64,000 nt of DNA from positions 4,414 through 68,413 of the forward strand of contig CADCJQ010000005.1 in assembly GCA_902801795.1 (NCBI GenBank), given 5' to 3'. Shown here in pieces: positions 16,549 through 29,930 of the stretch (positions are counted from its first letter, which is position 1; each line of letters starts with the position of its first letter). This stretch comes from an uncultured Erysipelotrichaceae bacterium (lineage in GTDB: Bacteria; Bacillota_I; Bacilli_A; RF39; UBA660). Under the pieces are notes generated by a model, which ran no database searches, was not told the origin of the DNA, and worked only from the letters and a program-made list of their open reading frames with translations. The translations under genes and the position numbers were made by a program.

Positions 16549-17688
16549 ATGGATAAAATAAAAGAAATAATTAAAGAATTTAACTTTATTGGTAATTTTG
16601 TTAAATATGAAGAAAATAACCAAGGTAATATTAATAAAACATATATTATTGTATATGAAAAAAATAATCAAGAACATAAATATTTATTACAAAAAATAAA
16701 TTCTAATGTTTTTAAAGAACCTTATTTAGTAATGAAAAATATTGAACTTGTTACTAATCATATTAAAAAGAAATTAGAAGAAAATAATGATACTGTTCAC
16801 AAAACCTTAAATATTATTAAAACAAAAGATAATGAAAACTTATTTACATATATAAATAGTGCTGGGGAAAAAGAATATTTTAGAGCGTTTGATTATATTG
16901 ATAATTGTATCTCATATGATAATTTAAATGATGGTAACGACCCTCAAAGTCTTGCTTATGAAGCTGGTAAAAGTTTTGGATTATTTGGGAGAATGTTAAA
17001 TGATTTCCCTGCAAATCTATTAGGTGAAACCATTAAAGACTTTCATAATACCAAAAAACGATTTAATGATTTATTATTAAGTATTGAAAATAAAGTTACT
17101 AATCGGTCTTTTGAATATCCTAAAAAAATAATAGATTTAATATCTATGTCTAAAGAATGTAGTGTTATTGTTGAAGAACTTGGAAAAACTATTCCTTTAC
17201 GAGTTACTCATAATGATACCAAATTAAATAATATCTTAATGGATAAAAATAATGGTACTGGTATTTCTATTATTGATCTTGATACTGTTATGCCAGGATC
17301 TAGCCTTTTCGATTTAGGAGATGGCATTCGTTCTGCTTGTTCTAATTCATTTGAAGATGAAAAAGATATTAATAAAATATATTTAAATCTTGATTTAACA
17401 AAATCCTATTTAAAAGGATATTTAGAAGAAATGGCTCTATATTTAAATCAAAATGAAATAAACTATATTGGTTTATCTATTAAAATATTAACTTATGAAC
17501 TTGCCCTACGCTTCTTAACTGATTATATTAATGGTGATACTTATTTCAAAATAAAATATGCTAAACACAACGCTGATCGTTTTAATAACCAATATATTTT
17601 ATTAAAAGATATTGATAATAAATTAGATGAAATCAATAAATTTGTTAAGAAAACCGTTAAGGATATTAAAAAGCCCCATCTTTCATAA
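16549..17688 (+). CDS. Aminoglycoside-phosphotransferase-fold kinase, possibly N-acetylhexosamine 1-kinase-like
   Basis: Catalytic loop VTHNDTKLNNILMD and metal-binding IIDLDTVMPG. The specific substrate call is from memory of NahK-like proteins. Confidence 0.6.
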   Translation: MDKIKEIIKEFNFIGNFVKYEENNQGNINKTYIIVYEKNNQEHKYLLQKINSNVFKEPYLVMKNIELVTNHIKKKLEENNDTVHKTLNIIKTKDNENLFTYINSAGEKEYFRAFDYIDNCISYDNLNDGNDPQSLAYEAGKSFGLFGRMLNDFPANLLGETIKDFHNTKKRFNDLLLSIENKVTNRSFEYPKKIIDLISMSKECSVIVEELGKTIPLRVTHNDTKLNNILMDKNNGTGISIIDLDTVMPGSSLFDLGDGIRSACSNSFEDEKDINKIYLNLDLTKSYLKGYLEEMALYLNQNEINYIGLSIKILTYELALRFLTDYINGDTYFKIKYAKHNADRFNNQYILLKDIDNKLDEINKFVKKTVKDIKKPHLS

Positions 17689-17710: not shown

Positions 17711-18727
17711 TTACTTAGTTTCTTTTTCTTTATCTAATATCCATTCATTAAAAGAATTAATTTTAAATTCACAATAATCACAATGTCCCTTTGTTATATC
17801 AATAGATGCACCACAATTAGGGCATTTATGATAATTAGTACCATTATTAATCTTTAATACCTGATTATTTCTATTTAAATACAAAACTTCTTCTTGATAA
17901 TCACTAACTATTCTACCATTTTTTAAATATATTAATCGTATATCTAACTTAACACTAATTTTATCCTTGGTAATTTCCTTAAATTCTAAATAATCAAGAA
18001 TATCATAATCAATAATGTTTTTATCAAAACAATATTTTGTTGTTAACTCATAATTTAAATTATTATAAAACTTCTTTTTATCAATTTTAGTTTTATCCCA
18101 AAATAATTTTTGCTTTTCATTTTGTTTATTTTTATATTTTTTTATTGGTTCTAAAATGATATATCCATCTATTATATAAAAGAAATAATATAAAACTATT
18201 GCAAGAATTATTCCATAAATAAATATTTTTGAAATATCATAGTTATTAAATGTCCTAGAAGTTAACTTAATAAAAATAAATGATAATAAAATACTTATGA
18301 TAATGTCAACTACTAAAGTAATAATACGGTATGTTTTCTTTCTAATTACTAAATCATAATGATATTTGCCACCTAAATCCTTATCTTTATAATCTATATT
18401 ATAATATGTACCACAATATGGGCATCCATCAATAAAATCTTTCATTTTGGATTTATTACCACAATTAACACATTCAAAATCTTTATCGTTATTCTCTTTA
18501 TTAACGAAAGTGTATTCTATTCTTGAATCAAAGATTGTTTCTTTTTTTAATAATTTATTATTAAAAAAGTAATCTTTTTCACAAATAATACCATTTGCTA
18601 TATCATCACAATATGAGTTATCACTATTTCTTTCTAAAATACTATTACCAACAATATATTTTGTTTTAATATTAATATTATGTTTTTTTAAAATATCTTG
18701 GTGTTCTTTTTCTCCTATTAAAGCCAT
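17711..18727 (-). CDS. Membrane protein with two zinc-ribbon motifs and 2 TM helices, function unknown
   Basis: CVNCGN...CPYCG and CPNCGA...CDYCEF flank TM helices IITLVVDIIISILLSFIFI and IFIYGIILAIVLYYFFYII. It is the last gene of the rSAM cluster. Confidence 0.6.
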   Translation of the reverse strand: MALIGEKEHQDILKKHNINIKTKYIVGNSILERNSDNSYCDDIANGIICEKDYFFNNKLLKKETIFDSRIEYTFVNKENNDKDFECVNCGNKSKMKDFIDGCPYCGTYYNIDYKDKDLGGKYHYDLVIRKKTYRIITLVVDIIISILLSFIFIKLTSRTFNNYDISKIFIYGIILAIVLYYFFYIIDGYIILEPIKKYKNKQNEKQKLFWDKTKIDKKKFYNNLNYELTTKYCFDKNIIDYDILDYLEFKEITKDKISVKLDIRLIYLKNGRIVSDYQEEVLYLNRNNQVLKINNGTNYHKCPNCGASIDITKGHCDYCEFKINSFNEWILDKEKETK

Positions 18728-18738
18728 TTGTTCACTTC

Positions 18739-19095
18739 CTATCTATTATTATTGTTATTATTATTGTTATTGTTGTTATTGTTATTCGAAGAACTTCCTC
18801 CAAATGACGAACCACCATTTGATGGTGTATAATGTGGAATTATCTTTAATATAGTATTACTTAATAATAAACCATCAATAGCACTACTAATACATTTACA
18901 GTTAATAACAGAATTTTCTTTTCCATTAATAAGAGCTATACCCTGATTATTACCTTTTATTTGCCCATCTTTATTATTTTTTAAAAACTCATATACTTTA
19001 TCTAATTCTTCTTTGGTTAAATTATAATATTTTGTTAAATCAATACATCTTTTTTTACGTATTAATTCTTCATAAGTTTCTGGTTCTTTATCCAT
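18739..19095 (-). CDS. 118-aa protein with a helical N-terminal region and a C-terminal ...SNGGSSFGGSSS-Asn14-R tail
   Basis: The start overlaps the rSAM stop (ATGGATAA). The tail is encoded by mixed AAT/AAC codons. Confidence 0.6.
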   Translation of the reverse strand: MDKEPETYEELIRKKRCIDLTKYYNLTKEELDKVYEFLKNNKDGQIKGNNQGIALINGKENSVINCKCISSAIDGLLLSNTILKIIPHYTPSNGGSSFGGSSSNNNNNNNNNNNNNNR

Positions 19096-20821
19096 TTTCT
19101 TCCTCCTTTACATAATAAAATTCTATATTTTGAAATGGTAAATTAATTGCTTGAATATGATAAAAAGCATTATTCTTTTGTTTTGTATAATGATAATCTC
19201 TTAATGAAGATGTTGTAAAGAAAATATTATTTAAAGAAGAATATTCATCTTTATATTCTTTTATTAAATTAGATATATCAACTACATAATAATCATCATC
19301 TATATTTTTTTCTAATACGCCTTTATATATTTGATGTGTTGCAACATGTCTTTGTTTATTTCTTTCTTCATCACCATAAGTAATCATATCGCCACTAAGA
19401 ATCATAATATATAAAGAATTATTGTTAGGATAATCACAAACTTCATTTATTAAATGCTTTTTCATATATATCTTAACAACACTTTTATCACCAATATAAA
19501 TAATATCTCGAGTTTTTTTTAATATTTGCGATTCTAAAAAATGTTTTACACTGTCTATTTCTAAAATAAAAGAATTCGAATCATAAATATATTTTAAATT
19601 CTCGTCTTTTATGATAATACTTTCTAAAGATGGATATTCATTATTAACTTTATTTGGAATATAATTACTAACGTCTTCTAAACGCATCTTATTAACATAT
19701 TGATAAACACTTTCTTCATTAAAATTATCTTTTAAATATCCTCTATCCAAGTACATTTCTTTTTGTAACTTACAAGTATAACTTTTATTAGAATGATAAT
19801 TATTCTTTACAAACGGACATCCTGTTTTGCATAAATATAAATATCCACATTTAATACATTCATCATTTAATTTCTCTTTATTATGATTAAGAAAAATTTT
19901 TTGAAAGGCTGTATTAAGTATTTCAGAAACTGTATTTTGATAAATATTACCATAATAGTAATCTTTATTTTTTTGTCCTCTAACACAAGAATAAATATCA
20001 CCATTTTTCTCTAATAAGAAAAATTTTTCACCGCAGTTATCGCAATTAGAACAATATGTTGGTCCAAATTCATCAAACCAAGGACCATTCACCCCATAAT
20101 CTAAATCCGTTCCATCAAATTCTTTGTGCATTCTCTTATAAAAAGCAACTTGTTCTTCTTCGTTCATATGATGAAGAATACCATTAGAATTATAATCAAA
20201 GCCAATCATAAAATTAAAATCATTCATGTCAAGACAAGTATTTTTATGCAGATATTTAATATCTTCAATAATTTCATCTATTTTATCATAATGTTCTTTA
20301 AAAATTGTTGCTGATACTTTCTTTTTATTCGGAATATCTTCTAATAGTTTAATATTATCTAAAATCTTTTCTAATGTTTTTTGATTACCTTTTGTTACCC
20401 TATAAGTATTATGTAATGAAAATGGCAAATCCAGACTACCTGATATAGAAACATTAAATTTTTTTATTGTATCTAAGTGTTTTTCTATATTATATAAGTT
20501 TGTTTTAATATGTACATTTCCAACTTTAAAACCATTAGCCTTAATAACATCCTTATTTTGATTATAATAATTATCTATATATTCAACAATTTCATAAAAT
20601 TCATTTTTAGATAATGTGGTAACCTCACCTCCATGAAGTGATATATTAAATGGCATAACATTACTTTTATGAAATTTATCAACAGCATATTTTAACGTAT
20701 CAATTGCTTTATATTTTTGATATTCATCTTTAGTGTTATCTTCTAGATAACAATATTTACATGCCATATTACAATTCATTGTAGGAACATATAATAAATG
20801 TATAAATTTTGTTTCAACCAT
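19088..20821 (-). CDS. Radical SAM/SPASM-domain enzyme with a ~200-aa C-terminal extension of unknown function
   Basis: CNMACKYCY (CxxxCxxC) near the N-terminus. SPASM-type cysteines are CSNCDNCGEKF...SC and CIKCGYLYLCKTGCP (Cx2Cx5Cx3C). I place the start at MVETKF (ATG 20821), which follows AGGGGA and lies 13 nt after the upstream stop. The track start at 20881 would overlap the upstream gene. Confidence 0.85.
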   Translation of the reverse strand: MVETKFIHLLYVPTMNCNMACKYCYLEDNTKDEYQKYKAIDTLKYAVDKFHKSNVMPFNISLHGGEVTTLSKNEFYEIVEYIDNYYNQNKDVIKANGFKVGNVHIKTNLYNIEKHLDTIKKFNVSISGSLDLPFSLHNTYRVTKGNQKTLEKILDNIKLLEDIPNKKKVSATIFKEHYDKIDEIIEDIKYLHKNTCLDMNDFNFMIGFDYNSNGILHHMNEEEQVAFYKRMHKEFDGTDLDYGVNGPWFDEFGPTYCSNCDNCGEKFFLLEKNGDIYSCVRGQKNKDYYYGNIYQNTVSEILNTAFQKIFLNHNKEKLNDECIKCGYLYLCKTGCPFVKNNYHSNKSYTCKLQKEMYLDRGYLKDNFNEESVYQYVNKMRLEDVSNYIPNKVNNEYPSLESIIIKDENLKYIYDSNSFILEIDSVKHFLESQILKKTRDIIYIGDKSVVKIYMKKHLINEVCDYPNNNSLYIMILSGDMITYGDEERNKQRHVATHQIYKGVLEKNIDDDYYVVDISNLIKEYKDEYSSLNNIFFTTSSLRDYHYTKQKNNAFYHIQAINLPFQNIEFYYVKEEENG

Positions 20822-20834
20822 AACTTTTCCCCTA

Positions 20835-22448
20835 TTAATAATACTCAATATATGTTGGACTTTCTTTAAATGCACGTTCATTTATGATAACATCTCGAGG
20901 TAATGTAATCGTTTCTAAACTATCACATCCCCTAAATGCCGATGATCCAATTTCTTTTAATAAACTATCACTTGGAATTGCAACTTCTTTTAAAGATATA
21001 TCTCCATAAAATGCATGAGCTGCAATTCTAGTTACATTCTTAGGAATATTAATCGATTTTAGTGATATGCAATTTTCAAATGTATTACCTCTAATTTCTG
21101 TTATTCCAGAAGGAATATTAATAAATTCTAAACTTGTGGCATTATAAAATGATTCTCCTCCTAAATATGTTAAAGTGCTCGGTAATTCCACCTTTTTTAT
21201 TGACGAGCAATTTTCAAATGCACCGCCACCTAAATATTGTAAATTCTTTGGAAGACGTACTTCCTTTAAACTAACATCATTGTAAAATGCTTCACCACGA
21301 ATTTCTCTAATTGAATCTGGCAATGTTACACTTTGTAATAAAAACATATTAGAAAAAGCGTTTCCTCTTAAACTTATTACACGTTCTCCTTTATATGTTT
21401 CAGGAATAGAAACAGTTTTAAAATTGCTTAACCCAAAGACATAATAACGAACAGCATAACCTCCATCTACTTTTTCATATAATATTCGAGGTTTAATAAA
21501 TAATAGCAACGACAAAACAATAGCTACCAATATACCACTAAGTTTTAAAACAATTAAATTATTTTCAACCAAAGAATTTTTAGTATTCATAACAATATTA
21601 CTAATCTTTTCATTTGGTCTTGCCTTAACTTCTTTTTTTAAATATTTTAATAAATCATATTTTTTAGTAATTTTAGAAAATATGATTAAAATAATCAATC
21701 CTATTAAATAAGTTAATATTGGAAAATGAAAAAATATCATAGTTAGATAAACAAAAACCAAAAATGAAAAAATAATTGTTAATATTCTTTTTCTTTTTAT
21801 AACTTCTGAAGGAATAAGTTTTTTGCTTAAATCAATACCAGCCTTTGTCATTTCTTTCTTTAAAAATTCTTCTAATAATAAATCTTCAGAATTACTATAT
21901 ATTGAATCATAATCACTGCTTTTGGCAAAAGTAACTGGAATTACTTTGACATTATCATTTTCAAAAGGCGCCCCACATTTAGAACAAACTTTATCATTTA
22001 CGTCTAAAGTATTTCCACAATAAGTACATTTTAAGGTAACTCGATTATCATTTGCATCTTTAATTGTATTACTTTTTAATTTATTTAAATTACTACCAAA
22101 AGGTGATTTTTTGGTTATTAATGCCGTAATTGGGACAATAACAAATGCTCCAATAAAAACTAATCCAAAATCAAAAAAAGCTATTGATGTAGTTACAAAG
22201 AAATCAAAAAATAATAATATTCCTACTCTTATACCAAACATTATCCAGAATAATCTCTTCGAATTATCTTTAGCTAACATTTCCGAAAGAGGTTTTAAAA
22301 CAAAAACAGACATATGAATGGATACAAAAGCTTCCATCATTATTGCCCCTAAAACACCAATTGATGAACCTTCTAAAGAAGAGCTTGCATTAACAATTTG
22401 AGGGATAAACATTAAAAATCCAATTAAAAAATACTTTATTTTTTTCAT
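20835..22448 (-). CDS. Polytopic membrane protein with an internal zinc ribbon and a C-terminal BspA-type leucine-rich repeat (LRR_5-like) domain
   Basis: Signal/TM segments, CTYCGN...CSKCGA, then repeats of the pattern IP..V..I...AF..C.SL (for example NCSSIKKVELPSTLTYLGGESFYNATSLEFINIPSGITEIRGNTFENCISLKSINIP). Confidence 0.7.
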   Translation of the reverse strand: MKKIKYFLIGFLMFIPQIVNASSSLEGSSIGVLGAIMMEAFVSIHMSVFVLKPLSEMLAKDNSKRLFWIMFGIRVGILLFFDFFVTTSIAFFDFGLVFIGAFVIVPITALITKKSPFGSNLNKLKSNTIKDANDNRVTLKCTYCGNTLDVNDKVCSKCGAPFENDNVKVIPVTFAKSSDYDSIYSNSEDLLLEEFLKKEMTKAGIDLSKKLIPSEVIKRKRILTIIFSFLVFVYLTMIFFHFPILTYLIGLIILIIFSKITKKYDLLKYLKKEVKARPNEKISNIVMNTKNSLVENNLIVLKLSGILVAIVLSLLLFIKPRILYEKVDGGYAVRYYVFGLSNFKTVSIPETYKGERVISLRGNAFSNMFLLQSVTLPDSIREIRGEAFYNDVSLKEVRLPKNLQYLGGGAFENCSSIKKVELPSTLTYLGGESFYNATSLEFINIPSGITEIRGNTFENCISLKSINIPKNVTRIAAHAFYGDISLKEVAIPSDSLLKEIGSSAFRGCDSLETITLPRDVIINERAFKESPTYIEYY

Positions 22449-22527
22449 ACTACCACCTACATTATATTAATAGTATAACATATTTTTTCTTAATTTTAAA
22501 AAAAAGATTTAACTAAATGCTAAATCT

Positions 22528-25747: not shown

Positions 25748-27751
25748 TTATTTAATTACATAAGGTTTACTTGCAGTTCCATCGGCATCATTATCAACGA
25801 TTGTAATGCCATTTTTAAGGGATAAAACTGGACGAAGACCACGACTCTTATTTACAATGCCATAATAAATAGCTCCATTTAGTGTAGAAAAGTCTGCGGA
25901 ATTATTAACACTAGTAAAATTGTAAGGCGACATCAACCAATAATCTGTTCCATTATTCAAATAGCTTATCACCGAACCTAAAACACCTCCACCAGATAAA
26001 ATCATTTCATCTGAAGATAATAATGCTACCGGATAATCTAAAGCTCCATTTCCTTTGCCATTTTTAATTGTAAAAGCATCATTTTTTCTACAAGATAAAC
26101 TCGGCCTTTTTATCACATTTTGTCTTTCATATCCAGAATAATATACAGTACTATTACTTATTCCTATCATTCCATCATTTGGATTTAATCCACCTAAAGA
26201 ATATATACTTCTATCATTACAAAATAATGTATCTTCTAATTTGTTTTCATAACTAGTATTATCAATATTATCCTCATACCAAGAATCTATCATTTTTTTT
26301 GCATTAGAATCATTATTGTTTTCTTGCATTTCTTTTAGTGCATCTTCAATGCTTTTTCCATTAATTAATGTAAAGTACAGATAATATTGTTTTCCGTTTC
26401 TTGTACCATACGCATAATAGTATCTTATATTTTCGCAAGTTCCATCAGTTGTTGTTAAATTGCATGTATAGTGATGATTATAATCTATCCATTCTTTAAC
26501 ATTTGTTAATGTATATAAATTATTGGTACTATCATAAATAAAACTATTACCAAAATATGCACTATCTTCTGCCTCTCCATTTGTTACCTCATACACGCTT
26601 CCATACATATAGCCAACATATGCTGGTGAATTAGCATTTTCGTTAAATGCAAATGTATTTACATCTGTTCCATCGATATTCAATGTTATTTGAGAATCAG
26701 TTCCTGTATTATCGCAATCTGGTACTTCACTTGTTCCTTTATTTTCGCCATTATATATTAATTTAACACCACCAGTATCGGTTGTTCTTACCATCTTCCA
26801 ACATTTATTAGCAAATAATACATTATTGTTTTCTACTGCTCCTCGATAATACATTACTGGATATGCATCATTTGATGTACTACTAAATGTATATACTCCT
26901 TTTCCATTGGTATCACTTGATATATTACTAAAATCTATTCCTGGCGTTGTATTATTTACGTATGTACTATTAATATTATCCATTACTGTTTGTCTTTCTA
27001 CTACATCATATAATGTTTCTTCTACCCAGATATCTTCATTTGCTTCTACTTTTACTTGGAATGATATTCCATTTTGTTGTAAAGAATTCCATTCATCAGT
27101 TGTTAATACTACTCTTCCATCTACCCAATCATTAGTTGTTCCCATTAAATCTGTTTCATTTCCATCATAGGTATCTGATATGGCTATTTTATTTTTATCT
27201 AAATAAGCTTTAATGGTTATTTTTCCATTTATCCCACTTGGTGTTCCTAAGGTAGTATTCTGTGGTATATATCCTACTAAGATATTACCATCTCCCATAA
27301 TACCATTACCTGATAATCTTTTATATATTTTAGTATCTTTACTTTCTCTTTCTTCAAAATAATTATTTTCATACGTTCCAAGTCCTTCAACACTTATATC
27401 TAAACTTATCGGTACTATTTGACCTGTTGATGTTGTAACATGAGAGTTTACTGCTGATACTAAATATTCAATACCACCTACATAATCAGTATCTCCTTCT
27501 ACTTCTATTTCAAATGTTCCAACTTTAGTTGTATCATTCATTATTCCTGTTTCTGTTGGATCTATTGGAAATAAATTAGTTAAATTAATTGTTTCTGTTT
27601 GTCTTGAAATAAAACTTATTCTTCCTGTCTTAATTACATTAGCTTCCCCTGTTCTTGTATAATTAAAGAATGCATACGTTACACTACCTACTGTTAATAT
27701 TAACGTAAATATTGTTATTACTAATAACATTTGTTTTTTACTTTTTATCAT
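25748..27751 (-). CDS. Secreted large protein: SipW-cognate-like signal, conserved N-terminal module, and a C-terminal domain ending in a YWLMSP...RGLRPVLSL motif
   Basis: N-terminus MIKSKKQMLLVITIFTLILTVGSVTYAFFNYTRTGEANVIKTGRISF. It is paralogous to 28024..29930 and, in the N-terminal module only, to 44911..48078. Confidence 0.75.
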   Translation of the reverse strand: MIKSKKQMLLVITIFTLILTVGSVTYAFFNYTRTGEANVIKTGRISFISRQTETINLTNLFPIDPTETGIMNDTTKVGTFEIEVEGDTDYVGGIEYLVSAVNSHVTTSTGQIVPISLDISVEGLGTYENNYFEERESKDTKIYKRLSGNGIMGDGNILVGYIPQNTTLGTPSGINGKITIKAYLDKNKIAISDTYDGNETDLMGTTNDWVDGRVVLTTDEWNSLQQNGISFQVKVEANEDIWVEETLYDVVERQTVMDNINSTYVNNTTPGIDFSNISSDTNGKGVYTFSSTSNDAYPVMYYRGAVENNNVLFANKCWKMVRTTDTGGVKLIYNGENKGTSEVPDCDNTGTDSQITLNIDGTDVNTFAFNENANSPAYVGYMYGSVYEVTNGEAEDSAYFGNSFIYDSTNNLYTLTNVKEWIDYNHHYTCNLTTTDGTCENIRYYYAYGTRNGKQYYLYFTLINGKSIEDALKEMQENNNDSNAKKMIDSWYEDNIDNTSYENKLEDTLFCNDRSIYSLGGLNPNDGMIGISNSTVYYSGYERQNVIKRPSLSCRKNDAFTIKNGKGNGALDYPVALLSSDEMILSGGGVLGSVISYLNNGTDYWLMSPYNFTSVNNSADFSTLNGAIYYGIVNKSRGLRPVLSLKNGITIVDNDADGTASKPYVIK

Positions 27752-28023: not shown

Positions 28024-29930
28024 TTATTTAATTACATAAGGTTTACTTACTGTTCCATCTGCATCATTATCAACTATTGTAGTGCCATTTTTTAGGGATA
28101 AAACTGGACGAAGCCCCCTATTATTCACCAAATTATCACTATATATTGATCCATTCGACAAAATTCTATTCATATAAGACATTCGATCAAAGCTTCGGGG
28201 TGACATTAGATAATAACTTGTCCCAATTGATAAGTAATATGACTCATTCGTCGTATTTTTTTTTCCTCCTGCTAATATTGCTTCATCATCTATCAATAAT
28301 GCTATAGGATAATTCAACATTCCATTTCCTCTTCCGTTTGTCAAAGTAAAAGCATCATTTCTTCGACAATAAAAATTAGGTTTAAATTTCAACGCATCTT
28401 TTGAATAAATTAATACTGCACCTGAGCTAGCATTACCTGCATAACCTCCATTTGGATTTAATCCTCCTAATTGATAAATGCTTCTATCATTACAATATAT
28501 AGTATCTTCTATTCGATTATCAAAATCAGTATTATCAATATTTTCTGCATACCATCTTTCAATTTTATCTTTAGCATTTGAATTAATTATATTTAATTGC
28601 ATTTCGTCTATCGCATCTTTTATACTTTTTCCATCAGATAAAGTAAAATACTCTAGTCCCCAAAAATAATATCTTATACTTAAACATGTTCCATTGCTTG
28701 TTGTTTCATTGCAAGTATAGTGGTGAAATTCATCTATACCTACTTTTGCATCTGTCAATGTATATAAATTGTTAATGTTATCGTATGTATATCCACTTCC
28801 AAAGTATACATTATTTGCTGGTGCTCCAATATTCGTGTCATAAATAGCCCCATACATATACCCATTATATGCTGGTGAATTATTCTTTACATTAAAAGCA
28901 AATTTGTTTGTTTCTGTTCCGTCTATGTTTAATGTCATTAATGTTTCTTCACCAGTATTATCACAATTAGGTGCTTCTTCTGTTCCTTTGTTTTCTCCAT
29001 TATAAATTAATTTAACACCACCTGTATCTGTCGTTCTTACCATTTTCCAACATTTATTGGCAAACAAGACATTATTGTTTTCTACTGCTCCTCTATAATA
29101 CATTACTGGATAGGCATCATTCGCAGTACTACTGAAGGTATATACTCCTTTTCCATTAGTATCACTTGATATATTACTAAAATCTATTCCTGGTGTTGTA
29201 TTATTTACAAAAGTACTATTAATATTATCCATTACTGTTTGTCTTTCAATAATATCATAAAGTGTTTCTTCTACCCATAATCCTTCATTAGCTTCAACTT
29301 TTACTTGAAAACTGATTCCATTTTGTTGTAATGCATTCCATTCTTCTGTTGTTAAATTAACTCTTCCATTTACCCATTCATTCGTTGTTCCCATTAAATC
29401 TGTTTCATTTCCATCATAGGTATCTGATATTGCTATTTTATTTTTATCTAAATATGCTTTAATAGTTATTTTTCCATTTACTCCATTTGCTGTTCCTAAA
29501 GTAGTATTTTGTGGTATATATCCTACTAAGATATTACCATCTCCCATAATTCCATTACCTGATAATCTTTTATATATTTTAGTATCTTTACTTTCTCTTG
29601 CAGTAAAATAATTAGTGTTTTGAGTACCTAATCCTTCTACTGTTACATCTAAGCTTATTGGTACTATTTGACCTGTTGATGTTGTAAGATGAGAGTTTAC
29701 TGCTGATACTAAATATTCAATACCACCTACATAATCAGTATCTCCTTCTACTAATTTGTTAAATTAATTGTTTCTGTTTGCCTTGTTATAAAATTAATTC
29801 TTCCTACTTTTAATGTATTTGCTACTCCTGTTCTTGTATAATTAAAGAAGGCATACGTAATGCTACCTACTGTTAATATTAACGTAAATATTGTTATTAC
29901 TAATAACATTTGTTTTTTACTTTTTATCAT
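28024..29930 (-). pseudogene. Disrupted paralog of 25748..27751 (about 70-nt deletion and frameshift after the signal peptide)
   Basis: ATG 29930 gives MIKSKKQMLLVITIFTLILTVGSITYAFFNYTRTGVANTLKVGRINFITRQTETINLTN then stop. The next frame resumes VEGDTDYVGGIEYLVSAVN... and joins track ORF 28024..29547. Confidence 0.7.

Follow-up and report, generated by a model that had tools for sequence, protein, structure and literature searches.

A 64,000-nucleotide (nt) stretch of DNA from an uncultured Erysipelotrichaceae bacterium (contig CADCJQ010000005.1, positions 4,414 to 68,413; hereafter the window) carries four tightly packed minus-strand genes in the order LRR537, rSAM577, small118 and ZnTM338. 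The second encodes a radical S-adenosylmethionine (SAM)/SPASM enzyme and the third a 118-amino-acid (aa) protein ending in Ser-(Asn)14-Arg. The question raised by this locus is whether the enzyme modifies the small protein encoded beside it, and what part the asparagine tail plays. Much of the new chemistry on peptides and proteins comes from radical SAM/SPASM enzymes, and most known SPASM maturases read a leader peptide through a recognition element (RRE) for peptides that are made on the ribosome and modified after translation (RiPPs) and act on specific residues. An earlier note on this DNA had proposed a maturation module with the 118-aa protein, or possibly the leucine-rich repeat (LRR) protein, as substrate. 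Our analysis makes it probable that the four genes make up a single operon for protein maturation by radical SAM chemistry, with the tail of small118 as the substrate. The wider claim, that this enzyme family with its C-terminal domain matures Ser-(Asn)n tails as a portable tag on unrelated proteins, from small cytoplasmic carriers that would work with membrane complexes in at least six bacterial phyla to phage tail-fibre proteins, and is thus a new post-translational modification system, we regard as evenly balanced.

Results

Gene arrangement and conservation in gut bacteria

All coordinates given for the four genes are those of the window, minus strand. The ATG of rSAM577 (19088..20821, 577 aa) lies 13 nt past the stop of LRR537 (20835..22448), the first gene of the module, which encodes a polytopic membrane protein, and GGGGAAAAG stands just ahead of this ATG. 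The ATG of small118 (18739..19095) overlaps the rSAM577 stop in the sequence ATGGATAA, and 11 nt separate small118 from the last gene, ZnTM338 (17711..18727), which encodes a membrane protein with two zinc ribbons. The tight coupling of four same-strand genes described in the earlier note was confirmed. The mechanically called open reading frame (ORF) of rSAM577 is 597 aa long and begins at an upstream ATG within the LRR537 gene; the 577-aa start was taken because it agrees with the N-termini (MxExKFIHLLYVPT) and lengths (577-583 aa) of the homologues.

When one genome per GTDB species was scanned, a close relative of rSAM577 was found in 226 species. The enzymes of the 80 loci that were fetched were 66-77% identical, and tblastn detected all four genes in identical order in these loci. 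The carriers were mostly gut metagenome-assembled genomes labelled Bacilli, Tenericutes, Mollicutes or 'Clostridium/Mycoplasma sp. CAG', which we take to belong to the RF39 lineage; a few were Lachnospiraceae, including the cultured Waltera hominis CLA-AA-H183, which has the four-gene module. Clustering of the ORFs of 83 loci placed the LRR family in 82, the radical SAM enzyme in 83, the small protein in 81 and the ZnTM family in 79, compared to 10 for the next neighbour family. The LRR537 family was the first gene in 82 and the ZnTM338 family the last in 79 of the 83 loci. The gene junctions were tight in all loci, the junction between the enzyme and small genes ranging from -29 to +1 nt and mostly from -8 to +1 nt. 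The flanks varied among loci, and AddA, a neighbour in the window, was adjacent in only three. No protease or exporter was conserved around the module in the 83 loci, which extends to the family what the earlier note had seen in the cluster; no sulfatase gene was conserved there, and no sulfatase domain was found in any of the four proteins. In the close family the enzyme was hardly ever found without the Asn-tailed gene, which accompanied it in 81 of 83 loci, and the two membrane proteins co-occurred with it in approximately 80 RF39/Lachnospiraceae loci. These findings show that the four genes form a real, conserved and self-contained operon.

One further locus (L123, 1600-3600) holds a degraded RF39-type module, with the enzyme gene broken into several short ORFs and the small gene cut short; either the locus has been pseudogenised or its assembly is poor.

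The asparagine tail of the small protein

Residues 1-92 of small118 (nt 18820..19095) were predicted by AlphaFold2 (AF2) to be a folded carrier domain of alpha-alpha-beta5 topology (predicted local distance difference test score, pLDDT, approximately 90), and the tail was predicted to be disordered. The N-terminal helix of the carrier (EPETYEELIRKKRCIDLTKYY) is highly conserved; what had been described as a helical, leader-like N-terminal region is predicted instead to belong to this 92-residue domain. Foldseek searches of PDB and BFVD with the carrier model yielded no significant relative, and Pfam gave no real match to small118. The C-terminal tail (nt 18742..18819) consists of a linker rich in Ser and Gly that contains one aromatic residue (residues 93-103) and ends in the junction residue Ser103, a pure, uninterrupted run of 14 Asn (nt 18745-18786) and the terminal Arg118 (nt 18742-18744), the last residue before the stop; it reads ...TPSNGGSSFGGSSS-N14-R. 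No other run of at least six Asn was found in the six frames of the 64-kb, 25% GC window, and the low-complexity ending singled out in the earlier note is thus more than chance. The two Gly-Gly motifs in the same region, which had been read as cleavage-type sites, did not hold up: the GG pairs are not conserved columns, and the C39 peptidase or ABC exporter that goes with a conserved GG site in Gly-Gly-leader secreted peptides was not found in the 83 loci.

The closing sequence of every small118 homologue is ...IIPHYxPSS-(S/G-rich linker, one aromatic residue)-GGSSS-N(10-20)-R. The Asn run was uninterrupted and 10-20 residues long in 76 distinct genome loci, and was encoded by 638 AAT and 375 AAC codons that were interspersed and arranged differently in each species. 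The AAC share of Asn codons was 37% in the runs compared to 7.6% in the genes of the window. Across the same loci the terminal Arg was encoded by six different codons. In five high-GC loci (L181, L183, L086, L097 and L120; 58-68% GC) the runs contained approximately 30-45% AAT, interspersed with AAC, a counterpart to the enrichment of AAC in low-GC genomes. A Ser immediately before the run (position -1) was present in 131 of 135 distinct proteins and was the most invariant single position. The residue after the run was R in the RF39/Lachnospiraceae clade; outside this clade the run ended in G, GNNNG or the like. The length of the run across all tailed proteins ranged from 4 to 28. Because the runs are pure with shuffled AAT and AAC codons, AAC is enriched and the Arg is specified by six codons, the sequences indicate protein-level selection for a pure Asn homopolymer. 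The codon mixing probably reflects avoidance of slippery DNA, that is, of a slippage-prone trinucleotide repeat.

Two other origins of the run were considered and rejected. Drift of AT-rich, low-complexity DNA was ruled out by the sole occurrence of such a run in the window, the AAT/AAC mixing and the tails in genomes of 58-68% GC. Asn-tRNA attenuation or leader-peptide regulation was ruled out by the conserved folded carrier, by the presence of tails on phage tail-fibre proteins (see below) and by a variable order of the tail and enzyme genes, in which the tail gene is sometimes last.

The radical SAM enzyme and its C-terminal domain

By both motifs and model scores, rSAM577 belongs to the radical SAM superfamily (Pfam Radical_SAM, PF04055, 47.5 bits compared to a cut-off of 29.5) and the SPASM subfamily (SPASM, PF13186, 26.6 compared to 21.5; NCBIfam TIGR04085, 46.3 compared to 27). 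The CxxxCxxC motif CNMACKYC (residues 17-24, nt 20750-20773; C17-x3-C21-x2-C24) and the full SPASM cysteine set (residues 257-350, nt 19772-20053), both recognised in the earlier note, were confirmed. The latter comprises C257, C263-x10-G274-x4-C279, C322-C325-C331-C335 and C350 and matches the seven-Cys auxiliary-cluster motif. Eleven Cys are invariant in the family down to 27% identity, and all are cluster ligands. The Radical_SAM domain begins at residue 11, so the enzyme has no N-terminal RRE; moreover, no PqqD-like RRE was matched in any of the four proteins, which sets the system apart from the RRE-dependent maturases.

The approximately 200 extra C-terminal residues in which the earlier note had recognised no motif are a real, conserved feature. 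This beta-rich, family-specific domain (approximately residues 370-577, nt 19091-19714) is conserved down to 27% identity, with the motifs YGDExRxKxxH, TTxxxRxxHY and NAFYHIQAxNLPF. It had no match in Pfam or PDB, including a PDB sequence search with the domain alone, and a PDB sequence search with the full enzyme profile also found nothing. The AF2 model of the enzyme had a mean pLDDT of 69. Its best Foldseek match was anSME (4k36, 1.2e-9), followed by CteB, SuiB, ChlB and PqqE, and these matches covered only the first approximately 400 residues, that is, the core. In a comparison with the NCBIfam models of RiPP radical SAM maturases (DynA, DarE, PapB, HxsB, GrrM, SCIFF, MftC, QhpD and others), no equivalog came near its cut-off for the window enzyme or four distant homologues (best 85.2 bits compared to cut-offs of 265-855). 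The highest scores of rSAM577 were with DynA (85.2 compared to 450) and anSME (TIGR03942, 84.9 compared to 349), in agreement with the earlier note, which could not place the gene combination in a described RiPP or maturase family.

Enzyme and tail in other phyla

An exhaustive HMMER search of 1.84 billion representatives, together with a profile search, was used to find distant members of the family. Full-length homologues of approximately 600 aa and 27-50% identity, C-terminal domain included, were found in Archangium, Aliikangiella, Pseudoalteromonas, Beggiatoa, Rapidithrix, Thalassotalea, Pelagibaculum, Corynebacterium and Campylobacter blaseri. With this domain, the enzyme is found sporadically across six phyla and also in tail-fibre modules of Campylobacter phages, a range far wider than the cluster to which the earlier note was restricted. 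All named genomes that were examined encode, next to the enzyme, a protein with a poly-Asn tail: ...GLS-N17-GSNG in Beggiatoa alba B18LD (144 aa; genome 36% GC), ...ARQS-N17-G in Archangium sp. Cb G35 (148 aa; 68% GC), ...WNS-N18-G in Rapidithrix thailandica (143 aa; 38% GC), ...GGGS-N11-G in Corynebacterium sp. H78 (82 aa; 58% GC) and ...EMSS-N11-GNNNG in Pseudoalteromonas luteoviolacea (119 aa; 41% GC). Scans of metagenomes and viral sequences with the distant profile gave the same pairing.

A same-strand ORF with a poly-Asn tail was present within 1.3 kb of the enzyme gene in 71 of the 74 evaluable distant-family loci, so that here too the enzyme is seldom without its tailed partner, compared to 1 of 18 for SPASM enzymes lacking the C-terminal domain. 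Across all loci 148 of 7224 ORFs were tailed, and all but approximately three weak ones adjoin a radical SAM gene. We define the poly-Asn-tail-associated family by the C-terminal motifs YGDxxRxKxxH, TTxxxRxxHY and NAFYHxQxxNxP and an adjacent same-strand product ending in Ser-(Asn)n with at most a few residues after it; rSAM577 and small118 of the window show both.

The remaining genes of the module differ. In type A the enzyme gene is followed by the tail gene and by a gene for a 250-290-aa protein with transmembrane (TM) helices at both ends; in type B a gene for a 155-170-aa two-TM protein precedes the enzyme and tail genes; the RF39 type has the four genes of the window; and a Bacteroidota-like locus (L127) has only the pair of enzyme and tail protein. 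Alignment with hhalign of the RF39 carrier and the type A and B carriers was not significant (probability 0.1), and Pfam and NCBIfam gave nothing informative on the partner proteins of the distant modules. Only the enzyme and the tail stay constant from one module type to the next, and the carrier domains, which range from small folded proteins to tail fibres, appear unrelated or undetectably related. Since the carriers share no detectable similarity, the tail is the common recognisable element.

Two of these loci have other features. A 58% GC contig labelled Staphylococcus chromogenes (L086, GCA_032468405.1) has the gene order of Corynebacterium sp. H78 (L183), namely SelO, a 259-290-aa TM protein, a 77-82-aa poly-Asn protein and the radical SAM enzyme; it is probably a contaminant or mislabelled contig and not Staphylococcus DNA. 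In Beggiatoa alba B18LD (L180, 1873-2550 and 6406-8809) the genes on either side of the module are one with an FGE-sulfatase domain, a HipA_2/DUF3037 pair and a second, convergent radical SAM/SPASM gene.

Phage tail-fibre modules

The enzyme was found among tail-fibre and tail-assembly genes in a P2-like prophage of Campylobacter blaseri, in Campylobacter phage CAM-P21, which is 100% identical to a viral contig, and in other IMG/VR contigs. The CAM-P21 homologue matched phrog_1802 ('radical SAM domain-containing protein') at 6e-142. rSAM577 itself matched this profile over its full length (E = 4e-47; residues 12-568 aligned to profile positions 49-549 of 556). PHROGs gives phrog_1802 no function or substrate, and its annotation does not link it to Asn-tailed tail-fibre proteins. 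The adjoining tail-fibre proteins (240-340 aa) end in ...RNGNNNNNGNNNTK or ...PSGSTNNNNY, and nearby small proteins (84-109 aa) end in ...APSNNNNNNGG, ...TFSNNNNNNNLAGNV or ...TSSNNNNNNRG. The tail thus appears to behave as a portable tag on unrelated proteins, receptor-binding fibres among them.

The prophage copy in C. blaseri (L087, CP053841, 5763-11181) lies between the tail-fibre and tail-sheath genes, a position which we take to be the Z/fun cargo hotspot of P2. The 391-aa gene that follows the enzyme there looks like one for a further fibre, in which the head is YadA-like and a coiled coil is present. In two phage-like metagenome contigs (L092, 100-640, and L093, 124-664), the genes for a 148-aa protein and the enzyme have, upstream of them, two consecutive small genes whose products both bear short Asn tails (...APSNNNNNNGG and ...VASHNNNNH). 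Because two tailed genes stand in succession, one enzyme may serve several tailed substrates. A literature search on phage CAM-P21 brought up no relevant paper; the paper on campycin (PMC11464564) concerns a different prophage (CJIE1) and makes no mention of a radical SAM enzyme.

Membrane partners and flanking features

LRR537 has a signal-like N-terminus and several TM helices and matched Pfam LRR_5 at 1e-46; its Zn_Ribbon_1 score of 24.1 bits was just under the 25-bit cut-off. The zinc ribbon (residues 141-158, nt 21975-22028) contains four Cys that are conserved in 91% of 77 homologues. The hydrophobic segments and the positive-inside rule would place this ribbon in the cytoplasm and the C-terminal LRR_5 (BspA-type) domain (approximately residues 334-537) outside the cell. 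LRR537 is unlikely to be the substrate, as it lacks an Asn tail and does not occur in the distant modules that keep the pair of enzyme and tail. ZnTM338 had only weak zinc-ribbon matches in Pfam. Its first ribbon (residues 86-105, nt 18413-18472) is followed by two TM helices (approximately residues 134-192), a soluble domain and the second ribbon (residues 302-319, nt 17771-17824), and all eight ribbon Cys are invariant in 67 homologues. No significant hhalign match was obtained between ZnTM338 and the type A TM partners.

The TAG stop codon of small118 (18739..18741) overlaps the Shine-Dalgarno-like AGGAAG of ZnTM338. TAG was the stop of the small gene in 71 of 76 loci, compared to a majority of TAA (17 of 23) among the genes of the window, and its overlap with AGGAAG suggests that translational coupling to the downstream ZnTM gene constrains the choice of stop codon. 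A candidate promoter with an extended -10 element (TG-TATACT; 22472..22500, minus strand) is situated in the 79-nt gap upstream of LRR537. The evidence for it is weak, as the promoter scan of this AT-rich DNA gave 54 promoter-like sites compared to 52 expected by chance; the scan for terminators found none. A convergent plus-strand gene (16549-17688, 379 aa) ends 22 nt from the ZnTM338 stop, and no terminator-like hairpin was detected between the two. Just upstream of AddA, two minus-strand genes (25748-27751, 667 aa, and 28024-29547, 507 aa) form one ORF cluster outside the four-gene module; the 667-aa protein begins with a hydrophobic, pilin- or signal-anchor-like segment (MIKSKKQMLLVITIFTLILTVGSVTYAFF...).

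Discussion

Comparison with characterised radical SAM systems

The system would work like other pairs of SPASM maturase and substrate, such as anSME, MftC/MftA and QhpD/QhpC. The closest likeness is to anSME (PDB 4K36-4K39; TIGR03942), the best structural match to the rSAM577 core: in both, the radical SAM domain starts at the N-terminus, no RRE is present and three [4Fe-4S] clusters are ligated entirely by Cys, and anSME acts on a protein and not on a leader-bearing peptide, as rSAM577 would. The target of anSME is the C-beta of a Ser or Cys. However, rSAM577 falls far short of the anSME equivalog score, has no sulfatase or (C/S)xPxR motif nearby, carries the extra conserved domain of approximately 200 aa, and has a partner that ends in Ser-(Asn)n.

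In mycofactocin and PqqE/PqqA biosynthesis, SPASM enzymes modify the product of a neighbouring gene, MftA at its extreme C-terminus, and, as in the rSAM577 module, no dedicated exporter is needed. Unlike rSAM577, MftC and PqqE need an RRE partner (MftB and PqqD) and act on specific residues (Val-Tyr or Glu...Tyr) of short peptides, and rSAM577 scored only 20-29 bits with their models. QhpD modifies a protein of approximately 100 aa, the gamma-subunit (QhpC) of quinohemoprotein amine dehydrogenase, which is kept as a subunit of a complex; its chemistry is a Cys-to-Asp/Glu thioether, whereas the tail of small118 has no Cys, and its model (TIGR03906) gave 39.5 bits compared to a cut-off of 453. 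DynA, tied with anSME as the top NCBIfam match, forms a Trp-to-Asn C-beta bond in dynobactin. Many tails have an aromatic residue shortly before the run, a likeness to the DynA substrate that is not universal, as type B tails lack it, and DynA has no C-terminal domain of the rSAM577 kind. The proteusin epimerase PoyD and YydG/EpeE act repeatedly along a peptide, and polytheonamide cores are Asn-rich. Epimerases of the YydG/EpeE type use a conserved non-cluster Cys as hydrogen-atom donor; rSAM577 has no such spare invariant Cys, which argues against a YydG-type epimerase, though a different donor is possible, and small118 has no NHLP or Nif11 leader.

Proposed maturation of the tail and its alternatives

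Comparative genomics supports the earlier suggestion that the 118-aa protein is the substrate of the enzyme. In the mechanism that we favour, the family-specific C-terminal domain of rSAM577 would bind the disordered Ser-(Asn)14-Arg tail of small118, and the anSME-like core, with its three predicted fully Cys-ligated [4Fe-4S] clusters and no RRE, would then carry out radical chemistry on it. The first step would most likely be abstraction of a hydrogen atom at the C-beta of the junction Ser, a candidate site because it is near-invariant (131 of 135), or of the Asn residues, after which the auxiliary clusters would support a two-electron oxidation or the formation of a cross-link. This chemistry is favoured because Cys residues fully ligate the auxiliary clusters and the fold resembles that of anSME. 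The matured carrier might work together with LRR537 and ZnTM338 on the cytoplasmic side of the membrane, perhaps docking to a membrane complex, and LRR537 would present an adhesin-type LRR domain outside the cell.

It is also possible, if unlikely, that the poly-Asn run is a mere recognition handle and that modification or cleavage takes place at the junction Ser or elsewhere, the run perhaps being removed afterwards. The invariance of Ser -1 agrees with this, as does the fact that anSME, the closest fold, acts on Ser or Cys; a run length that varies freely from 4 to 28 also fits a handle better than a defined product. On the other hand, no protease is conserved, and the run is pure and its terminal R or G conserved, as if the tail mattered in its entirety. 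A handle of this kind overlaps with tail maturation by rSAM577, since it involves the same two partners and differs only in where the modification falls.

An improbable alternative is that the Asn-tailed protein is an accessory subunit (a chaperone, regulator or polar-zipper scaffold) and that the enzyme acts on another substrate, such as the membrane partner, a small molecule or a component of the cell envelope. The carrier is predicted to be a folded domain, Asn-rich tracts self-associate, and membrane proteins lie beside the pair in most cellular modules, all of which would suit such a subunit. However, these membrane partners are non-homologous between module types and missing in the phage modules and in L127, the tail in phages sits on the tail-fibre proteins themselves, and no third conserved candidate substrate was found.

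More doubtful again is anti-phage defence or abortive infection, in which the radical SAM enzyme would control membrane effectors and an LRR sensor outside the cell. The presence of membrane proteins, the sporadic cross-phylum distribution outside RF39 and the one copy in a P2-like prophage between tail fibre and sheath, a known cargo hotspot, speak for it, but none of the four proteins had a PADLOC-DB 2.0 match at E values up to 0.1, and an enzyme conserved at 66-77% identity in the 80 species loci that were fetched, out of 226 species with a match, resembles a core gene. Moreover, the phage enzyme genes are set within groups of tail-fibre and tail-assembly genes, and it is the fibres that bear the tail. 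A classical secreted RiPP, with a helical leader cut at Gly-Gly and an exported low-complexity core, can be set aside as very improbable, for although SPASM enzymes often make RiPPs and the window protein has GG pairs, these are not conserved as sites, no peptidase or exporter accompanies the 83 loci, no RRE was found, the supposed leader is predicted to be a 92-residue folded domain, and the same tails stand on tail-fibre proteins of 240-340 aa.

Several points weigh against the maturation of the tail by rSAM577 as proposed here. The type of chemistry is a guess, the AF2 model of the enzyme is of moderate confidence only (pLDDT 69), and the parts assigned to LRR537 and ZnTM338, which are absent from the distant modules, are inferred from co-occurrence alone. 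In addition, phage tails are short (N4-N7) and sometimes interrupted, and one phage locus (L174) has no tail.

Significance

No NCBIfam, Pfam or PADLOC model describes a radical SAM system with a poly-Asn tail, and a literature search found no paper linking radical SAM enzymes to poly-Asn or Asn-rich tails or to tail fibres; the rSAM577 family is apparently undescribed. What appears to be new is a homopolymeric Asn tail on folded proteins as a type of substrate, together with a new recognition domain, and the breadth of its distribution, with a core-like operon in gut RF39 bacteria at one end and the tail fibres of phages at the other, was unexpected. The tail is apparently read by the C-terminal domain, which would be a new mode of substrate recognition and would probably bring new Asn or Ser chemistry. 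The Ser-(Asn)n-R/G ending also provides a simple signature for annotating hundreds of 'hypothetical' proteins. In phages, the presence of the enzyme within tail-fibre modules points to a possible link to receptor binding or fibre assembly which, if true, would be relevant to host range and phage engineering. RF39-type Bacilli, which are common in the human gut, are uncultured and little understood, and the module is conserved across 226 species, most of them of this type. If the proposed maturation is true, the modified homopolymeric tail would be a new protein structure or cross-link, relevant to adhesion and receptor-binding machinery.

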